In this document: piece after piece, positions 9,196-47,237 of the stretch
How the letters are laid out: each line of letters starts with the position of its first letter
Numbering within the stretch: position 1 is the first letter of the stretch
From: Alphaproteobacteria bacterium
GTDB lineage: Bacteria; Pseudomonadota; Alphaproteobacteria; 16-39-46; JABJFC01
Direction: 5' to 3'
Assembly (NCBI GenBank): GCA_018662925.1
Contig: JABJFC010000057.1
Coordinates: 19,194-83,193, forward strand
DNA length: 64,000 bases
Notes under the pieces: model-generated
The model's input: only the letters and a program-made list of their open reading frames with translations
Databases searched by the model: none
What the model was told of the DNA's origin: nothing
Translations under genes and position numbers: made by a program

Positions 9196-9271
9196 GTCCC
9201 CATCGTCTAGCGGTCTAGGACATTGCCCTTTCAAGGCGAAAACACGGGTTCGAGTCCCGTTGGGGACGCCA
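9196..9271 (+). tRNA. tRNA-Glu (anticodon UUC), CCA encoded
   Basis: manual cloverleaf fold: acceptor GTCCCCA/TGGGGAC, anticodon loop CTTTCAA, T-loop TTCGAGT; near-identical to proteobacterial tRNA-Glu. Confidence 0.9.
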
Positions 9272-28355: not shown

Positions 28356-29288
28356 GTGGGAGAAGCATTTTTACGGAGATGTTATTGTAGAGGGGCAAAG
28401 GTGAAATTGAGAAGAACTAAACTTTTCTTTGCAGGGGTTATTATTTTTCTAGGTTGTCATGGGAGTGTCCAGGGACAGTTTGATAAAACTCTTTGTAAGA
28501 AACAAAGTAAGGAACTACACTTTGATATTAAAACGCAGGATTCTTTGAGTGGAGATAGGTCAGGAAAAAGCTCTTTTTCGGTTTCAAAAAAAGGAAAATA
28601 TATAAATTTTTCTTTTGGTGATAATGTCCAGCGAATAAGAAATTCAGAGGATCCCACAGAACTATCACAATTTTCGGCTCGTTTGATGACGCTAGGCCTT
28701 TTATATCCAAAAAAATTAGAAAAGATTCTTTTTATCGGTTTAGGAAGTGGGCAAATAAATTCCTACCTTCATCAATTCGCTCCAGAGATAGAGATAACCT
28801 GTTTAGAGGTTAAATCTGAGGTCGTTAAGGCTGTGGAGAATTATTTTGGTTTGTCTCCGGATCAGAAAATCGTGACCGAGGATGTGTGGGAACACCTCCA
28901 AAATACGAAAGAAAGATACGATATTATAATTTTGGATTTTGACGTAATATCTTCCCTAGGCAAACATTCCGGTGATCTGTCTCTATATAGGCTGATACGA
29001 AGTAAATTGGTAACCGGCGGTGTTTTTGTTGGAAATTTTCTCACAAAAATTGATCGTTCTCCCAGTGACATACGAGAAGTCCTTTTGAAGGTTTTCGATC
29101 ATGTTGATGGATTCAATGTACGGGAAGAGCCTAGTAAATTTGAGGAACAAAGAAGTGATGATGCAATTTTAATTTCATACAACGGCCCTCCTAAAACAGA
29201 AGAAATACTTTTAAAGCGAACGTTGGGTCTTCAAAAAAAATATAACTTCCGATACAATATCAGTGAACTTTTTTTGTGTTGGTACTAA
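28356..29288 (+). CDS. Secreted PABS-like protein, paralog 2 (start uncertain: GTG 28356 / GTG 28401 / TTG 28407)
   Basis: ILFIGLGSGQINSYL…ITCLEVKSEVVKAVENYFG…YDIIILDFD…GGVFVGN; hydrophobic signal-like N-terminus. Confidence 0.55.
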   Translation: MGEAFLRRCYCRGAKVKLRRTKLFFAGVIIFLGCHGSVQGQFDKTLCKKQSKELHFDIKTQDSLSGDRSGKSSFSVSKKGKYINFSFGDNVQRIRNSEDPTELSQFSARLMTLGLLYPKKLEKILFIGLGSGQINSYLHQFAPEIEITCLEVKSEVVKAVENYFGLSPDQKIVTEDVWEHLQNTKERYDIIILDFDVISSLGKHSGDLSLYRLIRSKLVTGGVFVGNFLTKIDRSPSDIREVLLKVFDHVDGFNVREEPSKFEEQRSDDAILISYNGPPKTEEILLKRTLGLQKKYNFRYNISELFLCWY

Positions 29289-29299
29289 TGAGGTTAATA

Positions 29300-30241
29300 A
29301 TGAAAAATCGCAAAAATGAAGGTGGTTTAGAACGCTATAGCTGCTTTGTTAAGTACTGTTTTATTGTTTTTACTATTGTTACTACTTGTTTTCAGTTGGC
29401 AACAGCATCGGATACTGCAAATCCCTTAGCTTGCTATCAACTTTCAAGCCAACCAAAATTCAATCTGAAGAAGGCTGACGTCATTGATGTAATTCAAGGA
29501 AAAGATATTTCGGTATATGTTTTAGAAGTTGGTCCCCATATAGGAATGTCATTCGAGAGAAAACATGATATTCAGTCTATGTATAACCCCTTAGATAGTA
29601 CTGAACTGGCTATGAGTTATGGGCGGATCATGACTCTAGGAGTTCTGTATCCTACGACAAAAGAGATTAAGAAAGTTCTTATGATAGGCCTAGGAGGGGG
29701 TAGAATTACCAGTTACTTGAGTCAGTATATGAAAAACACACATTTCACTGGGGTTGAGCTTAGTCCTGAGGTTATAAAGGTTGCTCAGCAGTATTTTGAC
29801 GTAAAACCTTCAGAAAAAATTAAGATCGTAGAAAGTGAAGGTTGGAAGTTTTTGAAGGGGAGTAAGGAAAAATTTGATTTAATTTTCTTAGACGCATATT
29901 GGAAGGAAATTCTTCCTGAACATCTTAAAGGTGAAGCGTTTTATAAAGAAGTGAAGAAGCATCTTGTTTCTGGTGGAGCGGTTGTTCAAAATGTATTCAA
30001 TAAAAGGTATTTTTTGTCAGAGGCGGAAGATGTAATGACAAAGCTTTTTGATCATGTGGATATTTTTGAGAGGGGACATAATTTTATTTTAATTGGGTAT
30101 GATGGGCCTCTAAAAACAGAAAGTGAGAAAGTAACACTAGCCGAGACATTGCAGAAAAAATATGACTTTCGATATAACCTTAAGGATTTATTTGAATGTT
30201 TTTTCTACGAAAGTATTCCAGACGCGCCGAGGAAGAACTAG
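29300..30241 (+). CDS. Secreted PABS-like protein, paralog 3 (ORF from 29276; ATG 29300 has GAGG RBS)
   Basis: VLMIGLGGGRITSYL…FTGVELSPEVIKVAQQYF…FDLIFLDAY…GGAVVQN; signal peptide. Confidence 0.6.
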   Translation: MKNRKNEGGLERYSCFVKYCFIVFTIVTTCFQLATASDTANPLACYQLSSQPKFNLKKADVIDVIQGKDISVYVLEVGPHIGMSFERKHDIQSMYNPLDSTELAMSYGRIMTLGVLYPTTKEIKKVLMIGLGGGRITSYLSQYMKNTHFTGVELSPEVIKVAQQYFDVKPSEKIKIVESEGWKFLKGSKEKFDLIFLDAYWKEILPEHLKGEAFYKEVKKHLVSGGAVVQNVFNKRYFLSEAEDVMTKLFDHVDIFERGHNFILIGYDGPLKTESEKVTLAETLQKKYDFRYNLKDLFECFFYESIPDAPRKN

Positions 30242-30458
30242 CAGTTACTATTCATAAAAGTTTTAAAACAAGTCTTTTGGGTTTATTCCATAATGCAAAG
30301 CCAATTTGAGAGTTTTTGCTTTATCTTTCGGAGTTTTCTTTGTATAAATTATATAAAAATTGGTAGTTTCAAGGGAGCTACAGAGTGATCTGTTTTTCGG
30401 TACAAAACTTCTTCCCGTATTTTTTCCGTAAAATAGGGGCTATTCCAAAGATCAATTT

Positions 30459-33400
30459 ATGCTGAATGGATCCAATACAAAAACAATTATAGCTCTATGT
30501 TTTAAGAGTCTGACAATATTCAATTATTATTTTTTTATTGTCGCTTTCTTGCTGATTCCTGAATATTCTCTCAGCACTCGTATTGGAATTTTTGAGGAGT
30601 CAGACGAACCTCCCCCAGGCTTCGAAGCTGTAGATGTTGCTGAAGAGACTAACTATGTGGAAGCCTATTTTTTCGGGAATTTGCTTGGTAGTTCTCTAAT
30701 GACATACCAAGATAACAAGGTAGTTATTAAAAATCCGGGCCTACTTGTAAAGAAAATGAAAGGGCTTAAAGATCCTGAAGCTGTCCTTAAAGCATTAACA
30801 GGAGAAATAGCTGGCAACTCAGAGTTAGCATGTAGTAATGAAAATGCACGACAACCCTGTGGAATTTTAAGTCCCAAAGTAGCTGCAGTTATTTATGACA
30901 GATTCAAAAGAGAATTGTCTATTTTTGTTAATGCAGATCTCTTAGACAAAAAAGAACTTGAATTTGATCAACTGCCACGATCAACGAGTAATTTTTCTTT
31001 CCTGAATAATGTTTTTGTGAATTCGACAGGGAGTAAACGAGAAAGGAACTATACTGTTAACAATAGAAATGTTTTTGCCTATAAAGAGGCATTTATAGAT
31101 ATTGACTCGAGTTATTTCCTGGATGAAGGTGATACGTCTTTATCTACTGTTGGTGAAAAGCGTTTTCGTTTCAGTACAATTACTGGAAATTTGAATAGAT
31201 GGAATAAGACATTTCAGATTGGAACTGTGAGAAATGAAGGAAGTAACTTTCTATCATCTCAGCTTCTTATAGGAGGTAAGTTTTTTACCACACTTAATCA
31301 ACTTACAGACCTAAATAGCGCCCAGTCGACTCCAATAGAGGTTTTCCTAGCTTTACCCGGGGAGGTCCAAGTTTTTAGGGATAAAAAACTTCTGTACGCT
31401 CAAAACTATACGGCTGGCAATCAGTTCATCAATACTTCTAGTTTTCCAGCAGGAAATTACGATGTTCAAATCAAAATTATTGACATAAATGGCAACGTAA
31501 CGGAAACAACACAGGCTTTTGTTAAGACGGAAGTTATTCCTCCATTTGATTATCCATTTTACTATGGGAGTTTTGGATTTATTGAAAATACAGCAAATAG
31601 AACTCAAGAGCTGTTTCCTCAGTTTTTTAATGATTTGGTTGGGCAGATGGGGACGGCTGTAAGAGTAGCTAACTCTTGGGCCTTAGCTGAAAATGTTCAG
31701 TTGGCTCGGAGTGTTGCTGCATCAGAGTCTAGTGTAATTTTTGTCGATTCTGACATAACGTTAAAGGTTGGTGGGTTAATTACAACAAAGAAAAATTATG
31801 GATACTTTTCGGATCTACGTTATAGAGCAAGTTTTTTTTCTGGAGGCGGAAATTTTCTTAGTATGTTTGGTCCAACAAAGGCTCAAAGGAACAAAATAGC
31901 TTCTGAATTTGACCCTGTTTCTGGGACGCGTGTAAGATATTCAGCCTTTCTTAATTTGCCTCTATATAAAGGAAATTTTTTGTTCAACACTAGTTATGGA
32001 AAATCAGATGTTGGGACAAAGAATAGAGCTTACACTGCCACCTTTAGTTATCCTCTTTACAGGGAAAGTGGCATTTTTGCAAATTGGTTAACAAGCTATA
32101 ATGTTAGAAATAACGACAGGCTCTATATATTTGGTATAAATGTGAGTTTTTCCCATGATAATTGGAGACACGCGTTTCGGGGGACTTACAATAGGGAGCA
32201 AGATATTGAAAATCAGCTTAGTGAACGTGATACACAGGATTATACTTTAAGTTCTGCTTGGACAAAATCTGAATCTGGGCGCTATGATTTGGGAGCAGGA
32301 GTGACTGGGAGTCATACTTCAGCGTCTGATTCTTTAAGGCCATCCGTATCATATAGCGATAATTTTGGGCGCTTTCAAAGCAGTGCGTCTTATAGCAAAC
32401 CTATTTCTGGGGCAATTAGTCGGCAGTTTAGTTTTTCGGGGGACACAAGTTTTATTGCTGCAGAAGAGAAGAGCGGTTTCTCGAACTCTTCCCGTAATAC
32501 TACGGGGATTTTTGTGGATGTAATATCTTCTGAGGCTGACCAGGAATTTGAAGTGCTCATTAATAACCGCCCTGCTCAAGTTATTAAGTCAGGAACTGCT
32601 GCATTCATACAACTGTCACCGTTCAAGACTTATATGGTTTCTATTAACTCCTTAGCGGGTAATCTGTATACGTATAATCCTGAACCAAAGTTTGTCACTT
32701 TGTATGAGAGTAATATTCAACCACTTTCGTGGGAAGTGCAAAAAGTGTTTTTGCTTATTTCACAGTTTGTAAGGCCTGATGGAAGTTTTGTCCAATATGC
32801 AGGTGTGGAAGGTGGAGTTGATTTAGCCCAAACAGATGAAAATGGGTATATTCAAGTTGAAATTCCTGAGGGGACAGAAAAATTGTTTGTTGAACCCATT
32901 GAAGGAGCTTTTTGTGAAGTTAAGGTTGGCGGGTTGGCTCCGGAAGATAACTATGTATATAAGGAGAGTATAGTCTGTGTTCCTACAAAGAAGAGGCCAA
33001 AAAGAATTGATAATAAAAGAGAGAATAAATATGAAGGGGAAGTTCTTTTTGAAGAACTTAAGAAGGATGAAACTTCAGAGGGGAAAATAGAAGGTGATAT
33101 ACCTGTTGTTACAGAAGAGGAGATTCAATCACCATCGCAGAAACAGCCAGATCATTTGAATGCTATCGATCCTGGAAAGACTAGTTTTGAGGAAGAGTCC
33201 ATGGAAGGAGTTCAAGATCAAAAAGAGATGGCAGAAGAGAGTATTCAAGAAGAAGTCGGTGCAGGAGTTTCTTCGCAAGAGAATATTCAGCCTGAAGATA
33301 ATATCGAGGATCTTGATGGAATTTCTTCAAAATCGAAACCAGTGATTGAAGAATCGGTGCACAGAGAAATACCAATGATTGATATCGATAAAAATATTAA

Positions 33401-34043
33401 TAAAACAACTGAGAACAAGAAAGCAACAAGATTTAGTAAAGAATTAGTTTATCAAGAAGGGAAGCCAGCTATTTCACCAAAACGAGCTAAGCCTATGAAT
33501 AAGAAGTTTAAGAAAGAACTGGTTCATCAAGAAGGGAAATCAGAAGGAGCTGAAAAGAAGGGTACATCTACAAACAAAAATTTTGAGAAAGAATTAGTTC
33601 ATCAGGAGGGCAAATTAGTTGATCTAGTAAAACAAGGCAAGGCATCGGGCAGACAGTCTGAAAAAGAACTGGTTTATCAAGTGCGTGATTCTTCAGTGAA
33701 CAGGGCAAGTGGTCAAGCAGTAAATCCTACTAGAGTGACTAAATCTGTAAAACGCCTAAAGGAGCTGGTATATCATGAGGTAATTCCTGCTGTTGAGAAA
33801 GCTATGAACAAAAAATCTACGCAACGCCCTGAAGTCGGTCCGACTAAGAATAAGGTTTACGGAGAGAATAGTCTATTAGGGATAGTTCCTAAAGAAAAAG
33901 CCAAAAAAGGTATCAAAACAGGGCCCATCCCAAAAAAGGCTGTGTATTATGAAAAAGGACATCCTGAAAGTCTTGGAGAAAAGACACCTTCCTCGAATAG
34001 AAAAGAGCTCGTTTATCGAGAAGTTTCTTTTCTAGAGCGGTAG
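30459..34043 (+). CDS. Giant (1194 aa) outer-membrane usher-like protein with C-terminal ~200-aa extension carrying six KELV[YH]QEG-type repeats
   Basis: N-terminal hydrophobic segment. Middle region (…GEVQVFRDKKLLYAQNYTAGNQFINTSSFPAGNYDVQIKIIDINGNVTETTQAFV…) resembles the conserved usher segment seen in the bona fide usher at 41041 (…VEVFINESTRL…GPFLIEDLPVISGEGDIKIVTTDLLGRRQEV…). Beta-rich Ser/Thr/Asn/Tyr composition. Repeats at ~33430-34040. Confidence 0.4.
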   Translation: MLNGSNTKTIIALCFKSLTIFNYYFFIVAFLLIPEYSLSTRIGIFEESDEPPPGFEAVDVAEETNYVEAYFFGNLLGSSLMTYQDNKVVIKNPGLLVKKMKGLKDPEAVLKALTGEIAGNSELACSNENARQPCGILSPKVAAVIYDRFKRELSIFVNADLLDKKELEFDQLPRSTSNFSFLNNVFVNSTGSKRERNYTVNNRNVFAYKEAFIDIDSSYFLDEGDTSLSTVGEKRFRFSTITGNLNRWNKTFQIGTVRNEGSNFLSSQLLIGGKFFTTLNQLTDLNSAQSTPIEVFLALPGEVQVFRDKKLLYAQNYTAGNQFINTSSFPAGNYDVQIKIIDINGNVTETTQAFVKTEVIPPFDYPFYYGSFGFIENTANRTQELFPQFFNDLVGQMGTAVRVANSWALAENVQLARSVAASESSVIFVDSDITLKVGGLITTKKNYGYFSDLRYRASFFSGGGNFLSMFGPTKAQRNKIASEFDPVSGTRVRYSAFLNLPLYKGNFLFNTSYGKSDVGTKNRAYTATFSYPLYRESGIFANWLTSYNVRNNDRLYIFGINVSFSHDNWRHAFRGTYNREQDIENQLSERDTQDYTLSSAWTKSESGRYDLGAGVTGSHTSASDSLRPSVSYSDNFGRFQSSASYSKPISGAISRQFSFSGDTSFIAAEEKSGFSNSSRNTTGIFVDVISSEADQEFEVLINNRPAQVIKSGTAAFIQLSPFKTYMVSINSLAGNLYTYNPEPKFVTLYESNIQPLSWEVQKVFLLISQFVRPDGSFVQYAGVEGGVDLAQTDENGYIQVEIPEGTEKLFVEPIEGAFCEVKVGGLAPEDNYVYKESIVCVPTKKRPKRIDNKRENKYEGEVLFEELKKDETSEGKIEGDIPVVTEEEIQSPSQKQPDHLNAIDPGKTSFEEESMEGVQDQKEMAEESIQEEVGAGVSSQENIQPEDNIEDLDGISSKSKPVIEESVHREIPMIDIDKNINKTTENKKATRFSKELVYQEGKPAISPKRAKPMNKKFKKELVHQEGKSEGAEKKGTSTNKNFEKELVHQEGKLVDLVKQGKASGRQSEKELVYQVRDSSVNRASGQAVNPTRVTKSVKRLKELVYHEVIPAVEKAMNKKSTQRPEVGPTKNKVYGENSLLGIVPKEKAKKGIKTGPIPKKAVYYEKGHPESLGEKTPSSNRKELVYREVSFLER

Positions 34044-34184
34044 ACATAAGGATTTTATTGTTGTCATTAAATAGAAGAGATGTCTTATTAAGAATTTCCT
34101 AATACATCTTCAGGTTTTTTTGTGTTACTATTTACTTGTATTGTTGTTTTAATTATTTGTTTAGTTCAATTTTAATGGTGGTAA

Positions 34185-34442
34185 ATGATTAAGGTTACTA
34201 TATTATTCTTTTCATTTTTATGTACATTTTGTTTGATAAATGAAGAGGTGTTAGCCAAAAATATAACATACGGTATTTTAGCTCCAGAATTCTCTAAAAG
34301 TCAGCATCAGAAGCTTAAGGAGTGCAACCTAACGTGTTCAGTTTACTTGGGGGGAGCGTGTGCTCAAGTGCCTAATTGCAGCTTTTGTTGTGATAGCCAG
34401 TATGGCCCAGGGACAGAAATACTTCACAATTTTAGTAGTTGA
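34185..34442 (+). CDS. Small secreted Cys-rich peptide (85 aa, 8 Cys in the mature 60 aa)
   Basis: signal peptide MIKVTILFFSFLCTFCLINEEVLA; CNLTC…GGAC…PNCSFCC pattern; AT-rich context, weak RBS. Confidence 0.3.
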   Translation: MIKVTILFFSFLCTFCLINEEVLAKNITYGILAPEFSKSQHQKLKECNLTCSVYLGGACAQVPNCSFCCDSQYGPGTEILHNFSS

Positions 34443-34504
34443 GCCAAGAGACAGCCCACTGTTATTGGGAAGTAAAATTTTTCATGCAATTCTTGTATAA
34501 TGTA

Positions 34505-35239
34505 TTAGTTTGTTTGCCCTGCACTTTTTTTATCTAGAGTCTCTGCAACCGTTTCAAAAGAGACAGGACCTGCTTCAGGGATTTCAAAAGTGTAAGTGTT
34601 TCCAGCATAGAGGCGTTTGCCAGTTACCCCTGTTTCCACACATTTATCAGCTGAAGTGCATTGTTGGATCTTCCCAAAAAGCAGATTTGTATTGCCGATA
34701 TTTTTTACGGTAACAGACTTGCCATTCCGAATTGCAGAAATTTTTGCAACTGGTTTTATAGGAGGTATTACTAACTCAACTAAAAAAGCAACATTTACAC
34801 GTAAAAATAGTCGTTTTTCACCTTGTGAAACTGGTGCTACACGCTTTAGTTGTCCCAAAACGGGCATCACCTTAATTCTGTAGATGCGTTCTTGTTCACC
34901 TGGCGGTTTTAAAAGTGAAACACGAATGCTTCTCCTTTGATTCGGTGCAAGGACTAATTTTGGAGGTGTCAGAAGTAAGCCAACTTCCTTTGGATTTCGA
35001 CTTTCTATGGAACGTTCGTTCGGCATGCCAGGATTCTCAATAAGTTTTAGAGTAGTGCCAACGTATGACTTTTTATCTTTTTGTTGGTTGAAAACTGAAA
35101 TATCTTGATACGGCTTATCTTTTAATTTGAACTGTGTCCTTAATGGAGAGACGATAATACGTGCACACGCATGATGAACACACAGCGTACACGCTAATGT
35201 CATAAAAATTACTTTTGAAAAAAAACTTCGAAGCTGCAT
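34505..35239 (-). CDS. Periplasmic pilus chaperone (PapD/CsuC-like)
   Basis: signal peptide; IIVSPLR…, LLLTPPKLVLAPNQRRSIRV (chaperone …PP.f.l.p…q.iR motif), overall similarity to the chaperone at 46490. Confidence 0.6.
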   Translation of the reverse strand: MQLRSFFSKVIFMTLACTLCVHHACARIIVSPLRTQFKLKDKPYQDISVFNQQKDKKSYVGTTLKLIENPGMPNERSIESRNPKEVGLLLTPPKLVLAPNQRRSIRVSLLKPPGEQERIYRIKVMPVLGQLKRVAPVSQGEKRLFLRVNVAFLVELVIPPIKPVAKISAIRNGKSVTVKNIGNTNLLFGKIQQCTSADKCVETGVTGKRLYAGNTYTFEIPEAGPVSFETVAETLDKKSAGQTN

Positions 35240-35463
35240 CTTATTCTTTATTATTCATCATATATAATCACTGACCACATGATACTATTACCTAAATCCG
35301 TTGTCAAACCGTGGATGGAAATTAATTTATTATAAAATTGATATTTGCGTTTAAGGTTCATGTTAAATTTTTATATTTCCTGCTGCAAAATTTAGCTAGA
35401 ATGTGTTAAAGTATGTGCTAAAATACTAACAGAGACGGGTAACTTTTAAGGATTTGCGGAAAA

Positions 35464-36117
35464 ATGCGTTATAGTGATTGGAAAGGCCTTTGTTTTCAAG
35501 ACGTGAGGGTGGCTGTTAGGGTTCTTTCAGTGGCACTTTTTCTCTGCTATTTTATTGGTATTTCGTTTTCACAAGCTGGCTCTTCTGGAGGAGGAGGTGG
35601 TGGTGGAGGTGGTGGTCCAGGCGGGGGAAGTCCTTCGAAGGTTATTCCAGTGGGTGCCTCGATAGGGCTCCAAATTTTCATTCAAGATTCTAGTATTGAT
35701 GGACTCACTTTTGATGAAATATTAGATTCAACTGCGGGTGACGTTACGGCTCAGGACAAAATATGTGTCTTTAGCAATGTGAATTTTGGAGGTTTAGCTA
35801 GGGCGTACACAGTGACTGTAACGAGTGATAATGGGGAGTACAAGCTGTTGAATGCAGATGCTGCAGCTGCGGCAACGCCTGGTGGGCAGATGGTATATTC
35901 GATCCAATTTGCCGATAATGTGAATGGCGCTGGTGCACAACAGGTGCCCGAGGGCGCAACATTGACGGGGTTTCAAGCAACTTCTGTTGGTAAGTGTAGA
36001 GGAAACAATCCTGGAAATAATTCTGTTGTTATAGCTACAATTCTGGAGTCGGATTATCAAGCAAAGCTGGCTGGTGACTATCTTGATAATATTACTGTGA
36101 CAGTTGCCTCGCCGTAG
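35464..36117 (+). CDS. Divergent SCPU/Csu-type pilin-like secreted protein with (Gly)n tract
   Basis: signal peptide; G12-PGGG run; IGLQIFIQDSSIDGLTFDEI…ICVFSNV…GKCRG…YLDNITVTVASP (two Cys, C-terminal Y.D.ITVTV as in SCPU pilins); paralogous to 36500/37264. Confidence 0.5.
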   Translation: MRYSDWKGLCFQDVRVAVRVLSVALFLCYFIGISFSQAGSSGGGGGGGGGGPGGGSPSKVIPVGASIGLQIFIQDSSIDGLTFDEILDSTAGDVTAQDKICVFSNVNFGGLARAYTVTVTSDNGEYKLLNADAAAAATPGGQMVYSIQFADNVNGAGAQQVPEGATLTGFQATSVGKCRGNNPGNNSVVIATILESDYQAKLAGDYLDNITVTVASP

Positions 36118-36499
36118 ACTTTTCTTTTAAAAAACAATAGCTAATTAGAGTTTTAAGCTAAGCCTAATATAATAATCTTTGAGAATGTGTGTATTCTGAG
36201 TTTTAGAATTGAACCATAGAATAAAACTCAACAAAAACAATCGAATGTATTATTTTTGTATGGGTTTAGCATCTGACATCTCTTGTCCCAATGAAAAACA
36301 GATCATTTATCTCATTGCAACTCCTTAAATGCTTTAGAAAAATGTACCAAAAATAGTTCGGTTTATTATTTTAATTAATTCAAATAGATATTGTTATGCA
36401 ATGAAAAAGAAATAATAACTTTAGACTATTTGTGGTAATATTATATTGAGATGTTTGTTTCATTGTGGTTTTAAAGTTTGTGTTTAAAGAGGTGGAGTT

Positions 36500-37102
36500 A
36501 TGTCAGGAAAGTTTAGTAGCGTTAAACGTTTAAATGTATTTGCTGCAAGTGCTTTAGGCTTGGGGCTGCTCTTGTCTTCGTCAACAGGCATTAAGTCGGC
36601 GTCTGATAGTGATGATATAACTCTGACATTGGCTGTTGGACAACAGATCTTTATACAAGATTCCAGCATTGATAACATAGATTTTGGTACTGTTTCTGAG
36701 GTTACAAGCGGTGATTTAGATGGAACAGATGATCTATGTGTTTTTAGCAATGTGAAGTCAGGCACAGGTAATCAAACTAAGGCCTTTAAGCTTACACTTA
36801 CCACAGCAGAGACGGCAACCTTTCAATTGGAAGAGGACGGTGGAGCCGGCACGATAGCCTACTCTGTGGAATGGATTGATGAAATCGGAGGATCATTTGG
36901 TGATGGTGGAAATAGTACTGTAACGTATAACACCGCTGTTGACGATCAAACTGCGACAACCATTGGTCAGTGTCGAGGGTCGGGTGGAAATGACAATACG
37001 AAGTTGTTTATCCGAATACTTGAGGCAAACTATACTGAATTAGATGCTGCAACGTACAATGGTACTATTACTGCAGTGGTCGCTCAAGCTACGGGCACCT
37101 AA
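36500..37102 (+). CDS. SCPU/Csu-type pilin-like secreted protein, tandem paralog B1
   Basis: signal peptide; VGQQIFIQDSSIDNIDFG…LCVFSNV…GQCRG…YNGTITAVVAQATGT; ~80% identical to 37264. Confidence 0.5.
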   Translation: MSGKFSSVKRLNVFAASALGLGLLLSSSTGIKSASDSDDITLTLAVGQQIFIQDSSIDNIDFGTVSEVTSGDLDGTDDLCVFSNVKSGTGNQTKAFKLTLTTAETATFQLEEDGGAGTIAYSVEWIDEIGGSFGDGGNSTVTYNTAVDDQTATTIGQCRGSGGNDNTKLFIRILEANYTELDAATYNGTITAVVAQATGT

Positions 37103-37263
37103 TACGGGATAGTAATGGCCTTCCATCATTTCGATCGTATGGAAGAATTAAGGAGAGAGCGTTTGTTTTGTGTAGGTAGTTTTGAGTTCTTAATTTTAGC
37201 CTCATCTCAAGGAAAGTTTGTTGAGGCGCTTTAAGTTGATTTTGAAGAGTTGGAGACATAATT

Positions 37264-37866
37264 ATGTTGAGGAAACTTCGTGGTATAGAATCGAGAGTTG
37301 TGTTGGGTGCAAGTTTTTTGGCATTTCTGGTGGCTTTTTTTCCTCCCACAGGCCTGAAGACTGCATCGGATAGCGATGACCTCACCTTAACAATCGCGGT
37401 CGGGCAACAGATATTTATACAAGATTCCAGCATTGACAATTTGGATTTTGGGACGTTAATTGAGTCTACAACTGGTAATTTAGATCAATCTGACGATCTT
37501 TGCGTTTTTAGCAATGTGAAGTCAGGAACAGGTAATCAAACTAAAGCCTTTAAGCTTACACTTACCACAGCAGAGACGGCAACTTTTCAACTGGAAGAAT
37601 CCGGTGGGTCAGGTACCGTTGCCTATTCTGTGGAATGGATTGATGAAATCGGAGGAGCATTTGGTGATGGTGGAAATAGTGCTGTAACATATAACACCGC
37701 TGTCGACGATCAGGCTGCGACGACTATTGGTCAATGCCGAGGATCGGGGGGAACTGACAATTCCAAGCTATTTGTGCGGATAATTGAAGCTAGCTATGAA
37801 GCATTGGATTCTGGGACGTACGATGGAACAATCACTGCAGTGGTCGCTCAAGCGACTGGGACGTGA
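37264..37866 (+). CDS. SCPU/Csu-type pilin-like secreted protein, tandem paralog B2
   Basis: same length (200 aa) and near-identical to 36500..37102. Confidence 0.5.
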   Translation: MLRKLRGIESRVVLGASFLAFLVAFFPPTGLKTASDSDDLTLTIAVGQQIFIQDSSIDNLDFGTLIESTTGNLDQSDDLCVFSNVKSGTGNQTKAFKLTLTTAETATFQLEESGGSGTVAYSVEWIDEIGGAFGDGGNSAVTYNTAVDDQAATTIGQCRGSGGTDNSKLFVRIIEASYEALDSGTYDGTITAVVAQATGT

Positions 37867-38007
37867 TTAGTTTGATAATTTTCATTCATTCGAATATATG
37901 AAGTATAAGAGTGGAGGCCATTCTTTTCATTTCTGCTTGGGTGTTTTATTTTCAGTTCCAAGTAGTATATAGTGACGTGGTATGTTTCCGTTTAGCAACA
38001 GGTACGT

Positions 38008-38517
38008 TTGGATATGTTTATTAGCCGGAATGGGTTGCAGTTTATTTTGTTTCTTCTAGCATCCTGTTTTGTTTCGCAATGTGCCCAGGGGAAAGTTGCT
38101 ATTTTGTCGCAGAATGGGGATGGGACATGGATGGGGACTTTAACTTTTGGGATCAGTGGATCTGGGTACAATGATTTTTGCATATATCAAACAAAAAAAA
38201 GCAAAAAAGCTAAATCCAAAGGGCAATACCGTTATTCAGTAACCATATCGAGCGATAACAATTTTAATTTAGTAGAACCTGTTTCTGGGGAAAAGATCCC
38301 TTATCGAGTTTACTTTACCGATAAGGCCTCAGACGTTGGTCGGCGTGAAGTATCTAACCGTGTTCCTATTAATAAACTGACAACTTCGATTTCAAAGGAG
38401 AAGAAATGCAAAGAGAATGCTCGATTGCGTGTGATAGCCCCTTCTAAGGGATTTGAGCTAGCTTTGTCTGGGAGGTACTCGGACCACTTAACGGTCACTG
38501 TAGATTCTGATGAGTAA
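38008..38517 (+). CDS. Divergent pilin-like secreted protein (possible SCPU-type subunit)
   Basis: signal peptide; two Cys; C-terminal YSDHLTVTVDSDE resembles SCPU C-terminal strand. Confidence 0.4.
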   Translation: MDMFISRNGLQFILFLLASCFVSQCAQGKVAILSQNGDGTWMGTLTFGISGSGYNDFCIYQTKKSKKAKSKGQYRYSVTISSDNNFNLVEPVSGEKIPYRVYFTDKASDVGRREVSNRVPINKLTTSISKEKKCKENARLRVIAPSKGFELALSGRYSDHLTVTVDSDE

Positions 38518-38689
38518 GCTTGTAGTAATTCATAGACACATCTTTACTTGCGTAATGATGTGTCAGATAGCAACTTCTAGCGGTGCTTTACTTACATATT
38601 TATCCCATTTATCGCCATGCAACCCCACAAACCCCATTCCATGGACAATGATAGCCTGATATAGTGTTTTGGAGCTTATAGGGGGAGAT

Positions 38690-39589
38690 ATGGTGAAAAC
38701 ACGGCTATTTTATGAAATTATGTTGCTGGTTTTAGTGCTGGTGTGGCCTGTGGCAGGATTTGGAGCCGATTTTGGCCCTGTTTCTGGGGAAATTTGCCAG
38801 AATCTATATAATCAGCCCCCAGCGGATCCAAAGCTGGCTAATTTGGTTGAATATCGCGCCTCTTCTCAGAATCCAGTCTATGTTCTTGAACAAAATCAAT
38901 ATCTTATTATGTCATTCGGGGCTGTGCATGACCTTCAATCCATGTATAATCCCAAAGATGAATTGGAGGTTCCTCTTGTTTATCAAAGGATTATGAGCAT
39001 TGGGGCTGCCTATCCAAAAAATTTGAAGAAGGTGCTTATGCTGGGCTTGGGGGGAGGCCGTCTGACCCAGTATCTGCGTCAGTATCTGAAAAGAGCTGAA
39101 TTTACAGTTGTGGAACTAGATCCAGCTGTTATTAGCGTGGCCAAGGCGCATTTTGGGGTTCAGGAAAAGGATAAGCATCTTAAAATTGTCCAGGCTGATG
39201 CATGGGAGTATCTTAAAGATTCTAAAGACAAATTTGATCTCATTCTCGTGGATGTTTGTGTGAGTGACACAGTTCCTCCACAGGTCAAGTCGGCAGATTT
39301 CTATAAAGAGGTAAAAGCCCATTTGGCAAAAGGCGGGACCGCTGTTCAAAATGTTTCCCTAAAGCACTATTATTTGGGGGAAGCTGAGGCGGCTATGAGA
39401 GAAGCTTTTGGCGGCTTTGATTCCTTTGAAACCGATATGAACTTTATCCTTGTGGCTCCAGAAATGATCACGAAACATTCAGGTGTTCTTTCCTATCGTG
39501 CCAAGAGTCGTCAAAAGAAGTATTCTTTTCGATATCCTTTGGGCGAATTACTAGGGTGCTTTCATCGGAAAGAACCCATTTCCGACTAA
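38690..39589 (+). CDS. Secreted PABS-like protein, paralog 4 (ORF from 38669; ATG 38690 follows GGGGGAG)
   Basis: VLMLGLGGGRLTQYL…FTVVELDPAVISVAKAHFG…FDLILVDVC…GGTAVQN; signal peptide. Confidence 0.6.
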   Translation: MVKTRLFYEIMLLVLVLVWPVAGFGADFGPVSGEICQNLYNQPPADPKLANLVEYRASSQNPVYVLEQNQYLIMSFGAVHDLQSMYNPKDELEVPLVYQRIMSIGAAYPKNLKKVLMLGLGGGRLTQYLRQYLKRAEFTVVELDPAVISVAKAHFGVQEKDKHLKIVQADAWEYLKDSKDKFDLILVDVCVSDTVPPQVKSADFYKEVKAHLAKGGTAVQNVSLKHYYLGEAEAAMREAFGGFDSFETDMNFILVAPEMITKHSGVLSYRAKSRQKKYSFRYPLGELLGCFHRKEPISD

Positions 39590-39617
39590 TGTAAAGTCTG
39601 ACTTTACATTAGTCGGA
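39581..39617. terminator. 37-nt perfect palindrome (tccgactaatgtaaagtc t gactttacattagtcgga) overlapping the stop codon of PABS paralog 4, followed by a second hairpin ggctcggggagggagcc + TGTTTT (39644-39668)
   Basis: read directly. Confidence 0.5.
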
Positions 39618-39758: not shown

Positions 39759-40265
39759 GTGGTGGTCATGTTGAATAAATATTTAAGTATTATTACTTTA
39801 TCTATTGTTTTATGTGCATTTTCTGAGGCGCAGGCGTCGGGGGTGAATGGCTCTTTTCAAGTATCTGCGACTGTTTCGGCTTCTTGTTCTGTATCAACTA
39901 ATGATCTAAATTTTGGAAATTATAATAGCGGTCAAAATGGCGATTTGGATGCGACGGGACAGCTGGGAGTAGCCTGTACCAACGATACTTCCTATACAAT
40001 TGATGTGGGAACGGGATTATATGGGAACGGATCTAGCAGGAAATTGAAGAGTGGCAATTCGGCGACGGCATCACTGAACTACCAAATTTATAAAGACGCA
40101 GGCAGAAATAGTGTCTGGGGCGAAGGATCAGGCGGAGCCAGTAAAGTAGCAACCGGAACGGGCGGACAACAAAGCCACGCTATGTATGGTCGGATTCCCG
40201 CGGGACAATCGGGAATGCCCACTGGTGCGTATTCAGATCATGTAATCGTCGAGGTAACATTTTGA
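39759..40265 (+). CDS. Spore coat protein U (SCPU) domain pilin (CsuA/B-like)
   Basis: signal peptide; SCSVSTNDLNFGNY…GVACT…LNYQIYKD…VWG…YGRIPAGQ…GAYSDHVIVEVTF. Confidence 0.8.
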   Translation: MVVMLNKYLSIITLSIVLCAFSEAQASGVNGSFQVSATVSASCSVSTNDLNFGNYNSGQNGDLDATGQLGVACTNDTSYTIDVGTGLYGNGSSRKLKSGNSATASLNYQIYKDAGRNSVWGEGSGGASKVATGTGGQQSHAMYGRIPAGQSGMPTGAYSDHVIVEVTF

Positions 40266-40432
40266 TTTATAATAGTTTTTTCAGAATGTTCTCAAATTAT
40301 CTAAAATTTTAAAAAAATTTTGGTTTGTTAACCTTTTGTTAACCTTTTCACTCTAACATTAAAGATAGAGGCAAATTCTCTGACGAGAATATTGACGCAT
40401 CTTACTGTTAACAAAGGAAATACAGGAGGACA

Positions 40433-40939
40433 TTGGCAATGAAACTAAAAATGACAAGCATAGCCTTGATTCTTGTGGGAGCGCTCGTCATGGGGACTGC
40501 AAAGGCTGATTCTTCAAATGATTCTTTTCAGGTACTCGCAACTGTTGTGGCAAGCTGCACGGTGACGAGCAATGATTTGAACTTTGGCACCTATGAGGTA
40601 TCGGGGATTCATGCCTCCAGTAACTTAAATGCAACCGGCAGCCTGGATGTGAATTGTACGCAAAATATTGCCTATGACATCGGTATGGATAATGGTTTGT
40701 ATTATGGGGCTGGGGGTCGTCAGATGGAGAGTTTGACTGGAACAGATAAACTTTCTTATCAGATTTATAGAGATTCTTCTCGGTCTAGCCAGTGGGGGGC
40801 CGTTATTGGATCAAATACAGAGTCCGATATTGGTACGGGCATTATTCAGTCTCATACTCTATATGGTACTATTCCAGGTGGTCAAAGTGCTGCTGTTGAT
40901 GATTATTCGGATACGATTGTGGTTTCTGTGACTTTTTAA
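40433..40939 (+). CDS. Spore coat protein U (SCPU) domain pilin
   Basis: signal peptide; SCTVTSNDLNFGTY…VNCT…LSYQIYRD…QWG…YGTIPGGQ…YSDTIVVSVTF. Confidence 0.8.
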   Translation: MAMKLKMTSIALILVGALVMGTAKADSSNDSFQVLATVVASCTVTSNDLNFGTYEVSGIHASSNLNATGSLDVNCTQNIAYDIGMDNGLYYGAGGRQMESLTGTDKLSYQIYRDSSRSSQWGAVIGSNTESDIGTGIIQSHTLYGTIPGGQSAAVDDYSDTIVVSVTF

Positions 40940-40965
40940 CTTTTTAACCGGCATACCTTCCAATT

Positions 40966-41001
40966 CCGCCTTCTTCCCCTGTGGACGAAGGCGGTTTTTT
41001 A
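40966..41001 (+). terminator. Rho-independent terminator (CCGCCTTC-ttcccctgtggac-GAAGGCGG + T6)
   Basis: hairpin + T-tract directly after SCPU gene. Confidence 0.6.
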
Positions 41002-41040
41002 TACGATAATGCAAAAATAATGCTATAAAAACAGGGATGT

Positions 41041-43560
41041 TTGTCGTTGCCAGCCACTACACCAAAAATCTTTTTTAGACTCATTTTTGTTGTAAGTTTG
41101 CTTGTGCTTTGGGCAAAACCATCTTTTTCAAATCCCTCTCCAGCCGAAATGCAGGAGTTTTTACTTGAGACATCGGTTAACCACTCTAAACAGCCTGGTG
41201 TTGCTCTCTTTCTGATGGATAGCGAACAGCATCTCTGGGCGGATAAGGACGAGATACTGAAATGGCGACTAAAATTGCCAGAAGGCGTCTCCCCAGTTCA
41301 GTATCAGGGGAAAGAGTACTATGCCTTAGATTGGTATGAAGGCAGCAAATATGAGCTGGACTACGGTGCCATGCATGTATTTATTACGTTGCCGCCAAGG
41401 CATTTTCCTGAAACAGTTCTAAGCGATCTTCCCGAAAAGGTATTTGCCAAACTACCCGAAGATGTGGGTGGCTTTTTGAATTATGATTTTACAGGGACGC
41501 GCACGGGGACGCAGGCAAAAACCCGGGGTACGGGTGTAACAGAGCTGGGTGTCTTTCTTCCCTATGGCGTGGTGACCAATGATATTCTTTATAAAAATAT
41601 TGGAGGCAATTTTAAACCCATAAGATTAGAGAGCACCTGGACCGTTGATAATCCAGAAACGCCCAGTCGGTGGCAATTTGGAGATGCGACTGCTCGGCCC
41701 TCACCGTGGGGGGGCTCAGTCCTTTTTGGCGGTGTTAAATGGGGGACGGAATATGACATTCGGCCGGATATTGTAAAATTTCCTGTCCCAAGCTATCGAG
41801 GAAAAGCAGCTCTTCCCAGCAATGTGGAAGTGTTCATAAACGAATCAACTCGATTACGAAAGGAAGTGGAAAGCGGCCCCTTTTTGATCGAAGATTTGCC
41901 CGTTATATCTGGGGAAGGGGACATAAAAATCGTAACGACGGATCTATTAGGGCGGCGGCAAGAGGTAATTATGCCCTACTATACATCCCAGGAACTTTTG
42001 AAGCCTGGTTTGGAAGATATGTCCGTCTCGGTGGGTGTGATCCGCAGTGATTTCGGCATTGCGAGCAACCAATATACAGAGCCCATGGCCTCAGGAGATT
42101 ACAGGCTTGGGATTACGGATGATTTTACCTATGGTCTGCATACGGATATTTTAAAGAAGAGTCAGTCAGGGGGGCTTACCCTTGAGTATCTTCTCTTAAA
42201 TTACGCTATTTTGTCCAGTTCCTATGCCGTTAGCCGAGATACACGAGGGCCAGGGAGGCTGCTTTCCTTTGAGTTTTTGAGGCAGGGTAAATTCACCTAC
42301 GGTGGGAGAGGAACCTTTACGTCGCGTGATTTTTCCAGTGCAAGCACTCTTTTGACTTCTGTTGCCCCTAGTTTTACGGGGCAGGTTTCCACAGGCTATA
42401 CATTCGAAGATTTTGGGTCGTTAAACTTATCCTATACGTTGCAAAACCGGCGCTTGGAAGACTCAACAAAGTTTTTGACGCTAAGCTATACGAAAAATAT
42501 TACGAATGGTCTTAACTTTAGAACCAGTACGCTTATGAATCTTGTGGACAAAAAGCAAAATCAGATAACCTTTTCTCTCGTTTGGACACTGGACTCCGAT
42601 CATGTCTTGGCATCAAGTTATATCCATCGTAAGAATCAAGAAGATCAAAAAGTGACTCGATTCCGGAAGCGTCTCCCCACAGGCACTGGCTTTGGATACA
42701 ATATTTTGGCCCGGAAAGATGATAATAACTTTTATGAAGCAGGGCTAGATTACCAAAACAATTATGGGAAATATCGTTTTATTGGATCTCGCTTTAAGGC
42801 CAATGATAGTTATCAATTAGAGGCTTCTGGTGGGATAATCCATTATGGTGGAACAACGATTATGGCACGGCACGTGGATCAAGGATTTGCGCTTGTCGAA
42901 GTGCCAGACATGAAAGATGTGCGTGTCTATAGTAATAATCAGCTTGTTGGAACCACAAACTCTGATGGGAAGCTATTAATCCCCAATTTACGAGCCCATC
43001 AGAAAAACAAAGTATATTTAGAAACAAAAGACTTGCCTCTGGATGCTCAACTGCTAGATGAGCCAGAGCTTATCTTTGTTCCTTATTTCCGCAGTGGTGT
43101 TCGCGCTCGATTCGATGTGAAACGATCAAAGAGTGCAACGGCTCAGATCATGATGGATTCTGGCGAACCTGTTCCGACAGGGGCATCTGTTAAATTAGAG
43201 GATCATGCACAGTCGTACCCCGTGGCATATGACGGAGAAGTTTTCTTGACGGATCTGAAAGTGGGGACTTGGAAAGGTGAGGCACAGTGGAAAGGCAACC
43301 GTTGTTCGTTCACGATCCAACTGGATAAGACCGATGATCCCATGCCTTATTTGGGGGCAATAGGGTGTAAGCATCGCCTTACGAAGGAACAGAAAGCTAT
43401 TCCAGTTTTAAAGAAAGACGATGAAGCCGAAGCTGAAAAAGCTTCCAAAGATGATTCTGTAGATGGATCTAAGGGAGCTCAATCCCAGTCAGGTGAGAGT
43501 AAATTGCCAGCAGTTCAAGAACAAAAGTTGACGGACGAAACGGGGCCTCAAGATGAGTAA
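41041..43560 (+). CDS. Fimbrial usher protein (PapC/CsuD-like outer-membrane assembly platform), TTG start
   Basis: 839 aa; signal peptide; conserved usher segment …NVEVFINESTRLRKEVESGPFLIEDLPVISGEGDIKIVTTDLLGRRQEVIMPYY…; beta-barrel composition; acidic low-complexity C-terminal tail. Confidence 0.8.
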   Translation: MSLPATTPKIFFRLIFVVSLLVLWAKPSFSNPSPAEMQEFLLETSVNHSKQPGVALFLMDSEQHLWADKDEILKWRLKLPEGVSPVQYQGKEYYALDWYEGSKYELDYGAMHVFITLPPRHFPETVLSDLPEKVFAKLPEDVGGFLNYDFTGTRTGTQAKTRGTGVTELGVFLPYGVVTNDILYKNIGGNFKPIRLESTWTVDNPETPSRWQFGDATARPSPWGGSVLFGGVKWGTEYDIRPDIVKFPVPSYRGKAALPSNVEVFINESTRLRKEVESGPFLIEDLPVISGEGDIKIVTTDLLGRRQEVIMPYYTSQELLKPGLEDMSVSVGVIRSDFGIASNQYTEPMASGDYRLGITDDFTYGLHTDILKKSQSGGLTLEYLLLNYAILSSSYAVSRDTRGPGRLLSFEFLRQGKFTYGGRGTFTSRDFSSASTLLTSVAPSFTGQVSTGYTFEDFGSLNLSYTLQNRRLEDSTKFLTLSYTKNITNGLNFRTSTLMNLVDKKQNQITFSLVWTLDSDHVLASSYIHRKNQEDQKVTRFRKRLPTGTGFGYNILARKDDNNFYEAGLDYQNNYGKYRFIGSRFKANDSYQLEASGGIIHYGGTTIMARHVDQGFALVEVPDMKDVRVYSNNQLVGTTNSDGKLLIPNLRAHQKNKVYLETKDLPLDAQLLDEPELIFVPYFRSGVRARFDVKRSKSATAQIMMDSGEPVPTGASVKLEDHAQSYPVAYDGEVFLTDLKVGTWKGEAQWKGNRCSFTIQLDKTDDPMPYLGAIGCKHRLTKEQKAIPVLKKDDEAEAEKASKDDSVDGSKGAQSQSGESKLPAVQEQKLTDETGPQDE

Positions 43561-43667
43561 CTTTGTTTTTAGGTTGAAGAGGATGTTCAACTGGAGTGAT
43601 TTCTATTATTATGGGTACAATGGGGGATGTGAGTGTGTTCATGAAGAATATAAATGAAAAAAAGAAT

Positions 43668-44153
43668 CTGCATAAAACCTACATATGGTTGATCTGTATT
43701 TGTGCCATGTTTTTTGTCAGTCAAAATGCGCAGGCGAAATGTAATGGGGAGACTTGTACATGTGACGTGACAGCAGACTCCTTTTCTTTCGGAGAATATA
43801 CCCCATTTGAAAATCATTCCGTGGATTCGACCAGCACCATAAAAGTGACTTGTAGTGCCTCTGACTCTTTTAGGGCTCGGTATGTTATTTCTCTTATGAC
43901 GGGCAATTCTGGCTCCTATCGGGTTCGAAAAATGAGCAGTGGCAGATCCTTTCTCCAATACAACCTCTACACAGGGCCTTCTCATCGCGTTGTGTGGGGA
44001 AATGGGAGTCAGGGCTCCAAAAGGGTTACGGGCAGAAGTTCCGGGTCTCGGGCAGTGACCAAGGAATTTACCTTGTATGGTCGAATCCCTTCGAACCAGA
44101 ATGTGCCGGTTGGGTTTTACTCTGATACCATCGTCGTGGGGATAGATTTCTAG
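43668..44153 (+). CDS. SCPU-domain pilin (ORF from 43596; likely start at MKNINEKK…)
   Basis: signal peptide; CTCDVTADSFSFGEY…VTCS…LQYNLYTG…VWG…YGRIPSNQ…FYSDTIVVGIDF. Confidence 0.75.
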   Translation: MHKTYIWLICICAMFFVSQNAQAKCNGETCTCDVTADSFSFGEYTPFENHSVDSTSTIKVTCSASDSFRARYVISLMTGNSGSYRVRKMSSGRSFLQYNLYTGPSHRVVWGNGSQGSKRVTGRSSGSRAVTKEFTLYGRIPSNQNVPVGFYSDTIVVGIDF

Positions 44154-44314: not shown

Positions 44315-44992
44315 CTACGAAACCTTTCTCAAAGCCCGCTTCTCAAACACATGTACGATTTTTTCGCCATTCCAGTGATAAGACAGGTGGCGTTCTTGGC
44401 GGCAATTGCTTAGGACAGCAGCTTTAAAGGTTGCGGTACACAGGCCATCAGGTTGGCGAACGCTTTTGTACGTTAGGCCATTGGAATCTTCAGACTTTAG
44501 ACGAAGGGCGAGTGCTTGGGAATTTCCATAGTTGGTAGGGTGGTAAACATCAGATACATCCTCATTCAGGGTCCTGAGATCATGAAAGTCCCCCACTAGG
44601 TCTGCAACCAAGACGCGCATATCAATGAACATGGCCCCTTCCCCGGTTGCTCGGAGAAAGTTTTCCCGATGATAAGTGGTCTCGGCAATGGCGGTTTGCA
44701 GGTCGAAGGCCGCATAATACACGCCCCAAGAGCCATCACTAAAGCGGCTGCCACGCCTATTCTTGTGGGTAAAAGCTGCGGAGATATAGTTTGACGCAGG
44801 CTTTGTTCCGGCCGCATCTTTCCAGGCGGGGGCGCCACTGCGCAGCCGATCGTTGGTCATGCTTTCAATTTCGGCGAGGGCTCGGTGATTTTGTGGCCCG
44901 GCAATGCGTTCGAAAGGATTTACCGGGGGATACCGGCTGGGAATAATGCGCCAACAGGGAAGCCAGCGTATGGCACTTTTGGGTATCTTCAT
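44315..44992 (-). CDS. RES-domain toxin (NAD+-depleting ParT/MbcT-like)
   Basis: 225 aa; N-terminal W..WR..P.RY start typical of RES domain; 4-bp overlap with upstream antitoxin gene. Confidence 0.75.
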   Translation of the reverse strand: MKIPKSAIRWLPCWRIIPSRYPPVNPFERIAGPQNHRALAEIESMTNDRLRSGAPAWKDAAGTKPASNYISAAFTHKNRRGSRFSDGSWGVYYAAFDLQTAIAETTYHRENFLRATGEGAMFIDMRVLVADLVGDFHDLRTLNEDVSDVYHPTNYGNSQALALRLKSEDSNGLTYKSVRQPDGLCTATFKAAVLSNCRQERHLSYHWNGEKIVHVFEKRALRKVS

Positions 44993-47236: not shown

Positions 47237-47237
47237 T

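Follow-up and report, generated by a model that had tools for sequence, protein, structure and literature searches.

Background

Two of the chaperone-usher pathways, the archaic and the alternate one, have been grouped on structural grounds as related "non-classical" systems (PMC4654587). Representatives of the archaic (sigma) SCPU pili are Csu of Acinetobacter, CupE of Pseudomonas and the spore coat protein U of Myxococcus. The alternate (alpha, class 5) fimbriae comprise CFA/I (CfaABCE), CS1 (CooBACD), Tcf and the cable pili of Burkholderia. According to a 2015 paper, the alternate class is restricted to Beta- and Gammaproteobacteria, and the common pilus of E. coli (ECP or Mat/Ecp) is placed in the same pathway (PMC4654587). 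We here describe four pilin-like genes from an Alphaproteobacteria bacterium (assembly GCA_018662925.1, contig JABJFC010000057.1, positions 19,194 to 83,193); the window, as we call the whole stretch of DNA that was analysed, has 64,000 nucleotides. Two of the genes form a tandem pair, called copies A and B. Our main conclusion, to which we assign a probability of about 0.72, is that the four are the genes for the structural subunits of a single chaperone-usher pilus, that they belong to a large unnamed family with an assembly machinery of the alternate type, and that the duplication that gave rise to A and B is old and conserved.

Four pilins of an unnamed family

The genes are the following:

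35464-36117, plus strand: pilin paralogue 1, 217 amino acids (open reading frame and homology)
36500-37102, plus strand: pilin copy A, upstream member of the tandem pair, 200 amino acids (open reading frame, AlphaFold model, family profile)
37264-37866, plus strand: pilin copy B, downstream member of the tandem pair, 200 amino acids (open reading frame, pairwise comparison with copy A)
38008-38517, plus strand: pilin paralogue 4, 169 amino acids from a TTG start or 167 from the ATG at 38014

An earlier reading of this DNA, made from the sequence only, had placed the four reading frames here, had ascribed secreted-type N-termini to their products and had seen a chaperone gene and a PABS-like gene at their flanks. 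The list of open reading frames and the domain scan bear this out: all four proteins start with a hydrophobic, signal-like sequence, and the block lies between the chaperone gene at 34505-35239 (minus strand) and a spermidine-synthase-like gene at 38669-39589. The paralogy of the four is far above chance. Protein 1 and copy A are 33% identical (BLASTP, E 5e-22); protein 4 shares 19-23% identity with the other three and matches a profile of these with an E-value of 1.2e-4 (hhalign). The motif set that the sequence-only reading had attributed to all four holds for protein 1 and copies A and B, which have QIFIQDSSID, CVFSNV and CRG in common, but not for protein 4, where the counterparts read VAILSQNGD, CIYQT and KKCK.

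Protein 1 has a peculiar layout. Its signal peptide is followed by a leader of 11 glycines and PGGG, then by KVIPVGASIGL and the pilin domain. The mature N-terminus (35581-35640, residues ~40-58), with its 11 glycines and PGGGS ahead of the presumed donor strand, is odd among pilins; a 12-nt tandem repeat (35593-35616) codes for some of the glycines. Copy B is identical to the NCBI protein HOH38_07655 of a metagenome-assembled genome (MAG). In the MAGs that carry the locus, the four pilin genes are labelled "hypothetical protein". The organism label attached to these proteins is mostly "Alphaproteobacteria bacterium" and once "Nitrospinaceae bacterium", i.e., the same locus was binned as both. 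Open reading frames also exist on the opposite strand of the tandem pair (36484-36765 and 37089-37439, both minus strand), with a common segment SMLESCI.ICCPTA. They simply mirror, in antisense, the conserved stretch that codes for the N-termini; the sequence-only reading had already called such frames spurious, and nothing marks them as genes.

None of the four pilins matches a family of Pfam or NCBIfam, and in Pfam an SCPU hit is missing even at E <= 1. Word-seeded searches with copy A and with an alignment of 91 sequences (the 4 window proteins and 87 relatives) returned essentially only the window's own proteins. Locus scans with the three close paralogues found nothing in species-representative genomes and JGI (Joint Genome Institute) metagenomes, and the four-sequence profile had no match among the PDB sequences. 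An exhaustive profile search yielded 501 representatives at E <= 1e-3, 33 of them at E <= 1e-10; its close matches were three, all of them proteins of the window itself. The distant relatives are proteins of 160-200 amino acids or two-domain proteins of 310-350 amino acids, which typically end in G-x-Y-x-x-T-L-T-x-x-V-x-P-E. A profile built from 89 relatives alone matches all four window proteins with E-values between 1e-30 and 1e-23 (copy A, 1e-30; protein 1, 3.5e-25; protein 4, 1.2e-23); it matched no other open reading frame of the window, the four SCPU proteins of a second pilus cluster (see below) included.

The relationship to archaic pilins can be seen with deep profiles. The four-sequence profile compared with three of the window's SCPU proteins in hhalign gave an insignificant 4% probability, the 91-sequence family profile gave 94% (E 1.2e-7 over 151 columns). 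Pfam SCPU is reached by 7 of the 91 aligned members and CblD by one. Against PDB sequences the family profile produced six weak matches (E 0.16-1.3), of which the best, the pilin domain of CsuE (E 0.16), was the only pilus protein; chains of CfaB, CfaE or EcpA were absent at E <= 10. The genuine SCPU proteins of the window score 96-121 bits against Pfam SCPU; the four pilins stay below the gathering score of that family. The likeness to SCPU pilins that the sequence-only reading had noted is, therefore, real by deep profile but remote. Judged by these comparisons, the family is a distinct unnamed branch with a remote relationship to archaic pilins. A literature search found no published description of it.

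Predicted structure

AlphaFold (AF2) modelled copy A with a pLDDT (predicted local distance difference test) of 82 and a pTM (predicted template modelling score) of 0.71; residues 1-49 are unstructured and of low confidence. When the model was compared with the PDB by Foldseek, 12 matches were obtained at E <= 0.001, and all of them are chaperone-usher pilins. The best one is the pilin domain of CfaE (6k73, 5e-6); CupE, CfaB and CsuA/B are also among them, and the next ranks are mostly occupied by PapA, FimG and other pilins. Protein 4 was modelled with a pLDDT of 80, and its four best Foldseek matches are FimA and CsuA/B (E 1e-3 to 4e-3). Copy A accordingly has the incomplete Ig-like fold of solved pilins; in protein 4 the resemblance is weaker. 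Protein 1 and copy B would share this fold by homology. The sequence-only reading had called the proteins pilin-like and had named a structure prediction with an unrelated fold as its refutation. The fold that was predicted is that of a chaperone-usher pilin, with CsuA/B among the matches.

Alternatively, the four could be beta-sandwich proteins that are secreted or stay in the periplasm and form no polymer, e.g., surface-binding or matrix proteins, and would then have nothing but a fold in common with pilins. The missing Pfam and NCBIfam assignment fits this possibility, and so do the TM-scores of copy A to pilins, which are modest (0.4-0.5, normalised to the query). We nevertheless regard it as very improbable. 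Not a single one of the 12 structural matches is anything but a pilin; the N-terminal strand, left unfolded at low confidence by AF2, has a conserved alternation of hydrophobic residues; the C-terminal G-x-Y-x-x-T-L-T-x-x-V recurs in the last, C-terminal strand of SCPU pilins; and the linkage to an usher and a chaperone, considered next, is invariant across phyla.

Usher, chaperone and related loci

Upstream of the pilin genes lie two genes that look like a matching assembly machinery:

30459-34043, plus strand: usher of the TcfC/CooC type, 1194 amino acids (Pfam TcfC, E 2.8e-19; CooC_C, 2e-6)
34505-35239, minus strand: chaperone of the CfaA/TcfA type (NCBIfam TcfA, E 1.2e-15; PapD_N only 0.003)

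PF00577 has no match in this usher when it is scanned with Pfam. NCBIfam TcfC matches it with 1.2e-11; this match and that of TcfA to the chaperone fall below the equivalog cut-offs. Among PDB sequences, phmmer aligned the chaperone with CfaA chains only (4ncd, 4y2o and 6k73, E 1e-8 to 5e-8). The four pilins are probably assembled by this usher and this chaperone and not by the SCPU cluster downstream. That the partner machinery is of the alternate type and sits upstream had escaped the sequence-only reading.

A genome scan seeded with a four-sequence subset of the distant relatives revealed 30 loci. Their hosts are Sphingomicrobium, Sphingomonas, Novosphingobium, Odyssella, Woeseia, Pseudomonadales, Granulosicoccaceae, Azotimanducaceae and Bdellovibrionales. 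In a Logan contig, one distant relative adjoins a TcfC/CooC_C usher. In total, 31 related loci were available. A homologue of the TcfC-type usher is present in 28 of them, and 27 of these also have a CfaA-type chaperone; the three loci that lack the usher are contigs of 2.7-4.1 kb. The proximity of pilin, chaperone and usher genes is thus common to the window and to 27-28 of the 31 loci. Each related locus encodes 2-4 pilins of the family. The usher of the one locus whose usher and chaperone were scanned again consists of TcfC and CooC_C, and no Pfam or NCBIfam family accommodates the pilins of three loci, of which two belong to cultured Sphingomonadales and the third to a gammaproteobacterial MAG.

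The usher of the window differs in one respect. Its C-terminal tail (residues ~840-1194), about 350 amino acids long, is rich in lysine and glutamate and contains six KELV[YH]xE repeats starting at residues 994, 1019, 1044, 1069, 1101 and 1182, the first four being spaced by about 25 residues. The homologous ushers of the 28 related loci, a few of which are cut by contig ends or by the calling of reading frames, measure 795-929 amino acids where complete and show no sign of such a tail.

The window harbours a second pilus system, which is of the archaic SCPU type (39759-44153 and 46490-47780). It comprises four SCPU subunits, an usher with PF00577 and PapC_C, and a chaperone with a strong PapD_N match. 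A RES/Xre toxin-antitoxin pair (44315-45384, minus strand) interrupts the cluster, together with an open reading frame for 266 amino acids (45549-46349).

Our four proteins might, then, be extra subunits of this archaic pilus and make use of its usher and chaperone. They are, after all, remote homologues of SCPU proteins, with CsuE as the best match among PDB sequences, and a complete SCPU-type cluster begins only 1.2 kb downstream on the same strand, which makes some cross-use conceivable. The related loci speak a different language. At phmmer E < 1e-5, none of the 31 contains a gene homologous to the usher or the chaperone of the window's SCPU cluster, nor is the family linked there to a PF00577 plus PapC_C usher and a PapD-type chaperone; 28 times it stands beside a TcfC-type usher. 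The nearest approach is the chaperone of one locus (L021), which matched the SCPU-type chaperone weakly (9e-5) and less well than the CfaA-type one. Moreover, four SCPU subunits are already encoded in the downstream cluster itself, neither pilin family matches the other at the level of hidden Markov models, and a spermidine-synthase-like gene stands between the clusters. An affiliation to the archaic pilus is, in our opinion, quite improbable.

Subunit classes and donor strand

In donor-strand exchange, an N-terminal extension of one subunit would complete the fold of another. All pilins of the related loci were aligned to the family profile, and their N-terminal extension was scored. Nearly every locus encodes one to three subunits with an N-terminal donor strand and one without it. 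The typical extension reads AATQGTLGxTSTGS and continues with an alternating-hydrophobic strand. The subunits without extension start, in their mature form, at the first core strand, e.g., AQNVRISGLSDVNFG, and are usually encoded beside the usher gene.

The window conforms to this division. The donor-strand pattern is I-V-A-I in protein 1 (KVIPVGASIGL), I-L-L-V in copy A (DDITLTLAV) and L-L-I-V in copy B (DDLTLTIAV). The mature N-terminus of protein 4, KVAILSQNGDGTWMG, offers no donor-strand residues, as expected for a tip type. Because the donor strand is absent here and, likewise, in one subunit of nearly every related locus, protein 4 is probably a tip, distal cap or initiator subunit. Protein 1 and copies A and B would be the fibre subunits. 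The sequence-only reading had treated the four alike and had not set protein 4 apart as a class of its own.

Two-domain members of the family (310-350 amino acids) were found in several places (L010, 2586-3590; L015, 167-1144; P0005; P0006). In these proteins, a first domain lacking the donor strand appears to be fused to a second, downstream domain that has retained it, which is the order expected for tip and then shaft, the strandless subunit being capped by the strand of the next one. In some loci a two-domain protein takes the position beside the usher gene that is held elsewhere by the strandless single-domain subunit.

The signal peptide of protein 4 (38008-38090) contains LASC, which resembles a lipobox. 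A lipoprotein nature was considered and rejected: of 25 equivalent subunits of relatives, 24 show no lipobox-like match. The relatives appear to have ordinary sites for signal peptidase I, and LASC is probably a chance match.

Age and selection of the tandem pair

Copies A and B were described by the sequence-only reading as near-identical, as the outcome of a recent duplication and as a sign of antigenic or functional diversification of the fibre. The pairwise alignment and the ratio of nonsynonymous to synonymous substitution (dN/dS), which it had proposed as checks, contradict the first two statements and lend the third no support. Over their full length, the copies share 151 of 200 amino acids (75%) and 77% of the nucleotides. 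The mature parts are 84% identical in amino acids, the signal peptides only about 30%. The unit of duplication measures 764 nt, and in the non-coding DNA upstream of the two genes similarity is confined to the ribosome-binding region. For the mature parts, the method of Nei and Gojobori gives dS 0.75, dN 0.096 and dN/dS 0.13. Along the gene, dS is unevenly distributed:

Codons 33-77: dS about 2.1
Codons 78-152: dS 0.38
Codons 153-200: dS 1.16

A dS of 0.75 for the mature part, with values above 1 in either flank, and a dN/dS of 0.13 show that the two copies go back to an old duplication and that purifying selection acts on both. Even the most similar central block, with its dS of 0.38, is not what a recent event leaves behind. 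In codons 33-47, which include the donor strand, the synonymous sites are saturated at a dN of 0.13; the strand has been kept all the same. In the central block, 20 identical third positions follow each other in a run (p = 0.006, permutation), and the lower, non-random dS of this tract of about 225 nt suggests that it was probably homogenised later by gene conversion.

It could still be argued that A and B are recent duplicates of a major subunit under diversifying selection, antigenic or functional, and perhaps recombine to vary the surface of the fibre. The tandem layout and the mosaic identity are compatible with an exchange between the copies, and their differences are concentrated in the N- and C-terminal thirds. 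Recent duplicates under such selection, however, should combine a low dS with a dN/dS near or above 1. The values found are far from that: dN/dS amounts to 0.10-0.15 in each mature segment examined, the substitutions are mostly conservative, and the upstream non-coding similarity has been lost. Nor does the pilin region contain a switch for phase variation; convincing inverted repeats flanking a promoter, an invertible element or a silent cassette were not found there. Fifteen contigs carry copy B. For 8 of them, which come from several metagenomes and MAGs, the DNA was obtained, and along stretches of up to 5.7 kb every one matches the window at 100% identity, although the look-up selects exact copies of copy B and hence is biased against showing variation or recombination. 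We consider diversification of this kind unlikely.

Three independent assemblies (L005, L007 and L009, contigs from metagenomes or MAGs) begin inside copy A, which is consistent with a 77%-identical tandem repeat breaking short-read assemblies.

Proposed assembly and its standing

For the single pilus with alternate-type machinery that we favour, we infer the following pathway. Each pilin would be exported by the Sec pathway and captured in the periplasm by the divergently transcribed CfaA/TcfA-like chaperone. Polymerisation would take place at the TcfC/CooC-like usher through donor-strand exchange, whereby the N-terminal strand of protein 1, copy A or copy B would occupy the groove of the subunit before it. 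Protein 4, which starts at the first strand of the fold, could accept a strand but not donate one; it would be assembled first, as the initiator or distal cap. Both A and B most likely belong to the shaft, where they would be redundant or would co-polymerise.

Several observations weigh against this reading, beyond the conceivable cross-use of the SCPU machinery mentioned above. The gene order is not that of the relatives: here the chaperone gene is on the opposite strand, and the usher gene is upstream and not downstream of the pilins. The structural matches of protein 4 are weak (best E 1e-3, TM 0.34-0.49). The presumed donor strand of protein 1 contains a proline and two glycines and is preceded by the poly-glycine leader. 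Since window proteins had seeded the profile by which the relatives were collected, the match of the relatives-only profile is not a fully independent test. Finally, the window's four proteins form an isolated branch, the next relative scoring only E 4e-18; because of this isolation a function can be transferred to them from the relatives only indirectly, and the relatives, for their part, are uncharacterised.

A broader generalisation is tempting, and we offer it tentatively, with a little less than an even chance of being right. The cluster may stand for a clade of chaperone-usher systems that is widespread among environmental Alpha- and Gammaproteobacteria and Bdellovibrionales and so far undescribed. 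This clade would combine a TcfC/CfaA-like machinery with pilins nearer to archaic SCPU proteins in sequence and with a minimal, single-domain, strandless cap, in some lineages fused to a shaft pilin, in place of the two-domain adhesin. If so, it would connect the archaic and the alternate pathways in evolution.

Recognition of the family would make about 500 protein clusters, and the operons around them, annotatable as pilus subunits. The combination of SCPU-like subunits with an usher and a chaperone of the alternate type bears on the relation of the two non-classical pathways, and the related loci extend the alternate-type machinery past Beta- and Gammaproteobacteria. A single-domain strandless subunit that recurs from locus to locus, together with its fused two-domain form, is a simple system for studying how the assembly of a pilus starts. 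Last but not least, an uncultured marine bacterium keeps two different pilus systems side by side in one genome.

Neighbouring features

Two candidate regulatory sites accompany the genes:

35279-35307, minus strand: sigma-70-like promoter match, TTGACA-17-TATCAT (11/12), upstream of the chaperone gene, within the intergenic region from which this gene and pilin 1 diverge
37907-37925, plus strand: weak, tentative terminator-like hairpin with an 8-bp stem and a T-rich tail, 41 nt past the stop codon of copy B

In the region, promoter- and terminator-like sites are not more numerous than expected from shuffled sequence, and the promoter is a consensus match only. Between the usher and chaperone genes, an open reading frame for 85 amino acids (34185-34442, plus strand) specifies a signal peptide and a mature part with seven cysteines. 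It belongs to no family of Pfam or NCBIfam, and the related loci contain no homologue of it; in two metagenome contigs it is called as a gene. An Rfam scan found nothing in the pilin region, the sole match in the window being a tRNA at 9196-9268.

The pilus cluster is bracketed by four spermidine-synthase-like (PF01564) paralogues at 27456-28355, 28356-29288, 29276-30241 and 38669-39589. The last two, whose translations were read, have hydrophobic N-termini. A perfect palindrome at 39581-39617, with arms of 18 nt each and 1 nt between them, overlaps the stop codon of the fourth paralogue. A functional link between these genes and the pilins was considered and dropped: since none of the 31 related pilus loci contains a spermidine-synthase-like gene, the association is specific to this genome. 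Across 28000-38000, which includes the third spermidine-synthase-like gene as well as the TcfC-type pilus cluster, the GC content is 0.36-0.39, as compared to 0.41-0.48 elsewhere in the window; the low value suggests horizontal acquisition.

Comparison with known systems

With the E. coli common pilus the locus shares the name that JGI gives to the usher at 30459-34043, "Mat/Ecp fimbriae outer membrane usher protein", and the alternate pathway to which ECP is assigned. EcpA is absent from the search of PDB sequences (E <= 10) and from the best 50 Foldseek matches of copy A. The ECP operon encodes two chaperones and a large polymerising tip pilin, which are not seen at the window locus.

The affinity to the archaic SCPU pili is that of the subunits. 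It comprises the profile homology (94%), CsuE as the best match among PDB sequences, and CupE and CsuA/B as top structural matches of copy A. In both systems, several small pilin paralogues are encoded per operon, and the C-terminal motif Y-x-D/G-x-I/L-T-V is common to them. The cysteines, in contrast, are arranged as C...CRG here and as an early C...C pair in SCPU proteins, the family ends in ...VAPE and not in an aromatic residue, and in 31 loci it is never found beside an usher of the PF00577/PapC_C type.

The alternate fimbriae come closest in machinery. Their usher has the TcfC E-set and CooC_C domains that are also present here, and the chaperone of the window is TcfA/CfaA-like by sequence. 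The model of copy A finds its best match in the pilin domain of CfaE, with CfaB among the matches at E <= 0.001, and a strandless subunit is apparently dedicated to the tip or to initiation, like CfaE and CooD. There are differences, too. The pilins have no match to Fimbrial_CS1 (PF04449, the CS1/CfaB family) or CblD in Pfam, and their similarity to CfaB is one of fold only. The presumed tip is a single domain of 140 residues and not a two-domain adhesin of the CfaE/CooD/CblD kind, although some related loci have a two-domain version. Three pilins with donor strands take the place of one major pilin, the order of the genes is different, and the loci come from environmental Alpha- and Gammaproteobacteria and from Bdellovibrionales. 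Taken together, the system most resembles the alternate (class 5) fimbriae in its machinery and the archaic SCPU pili in its subunits.

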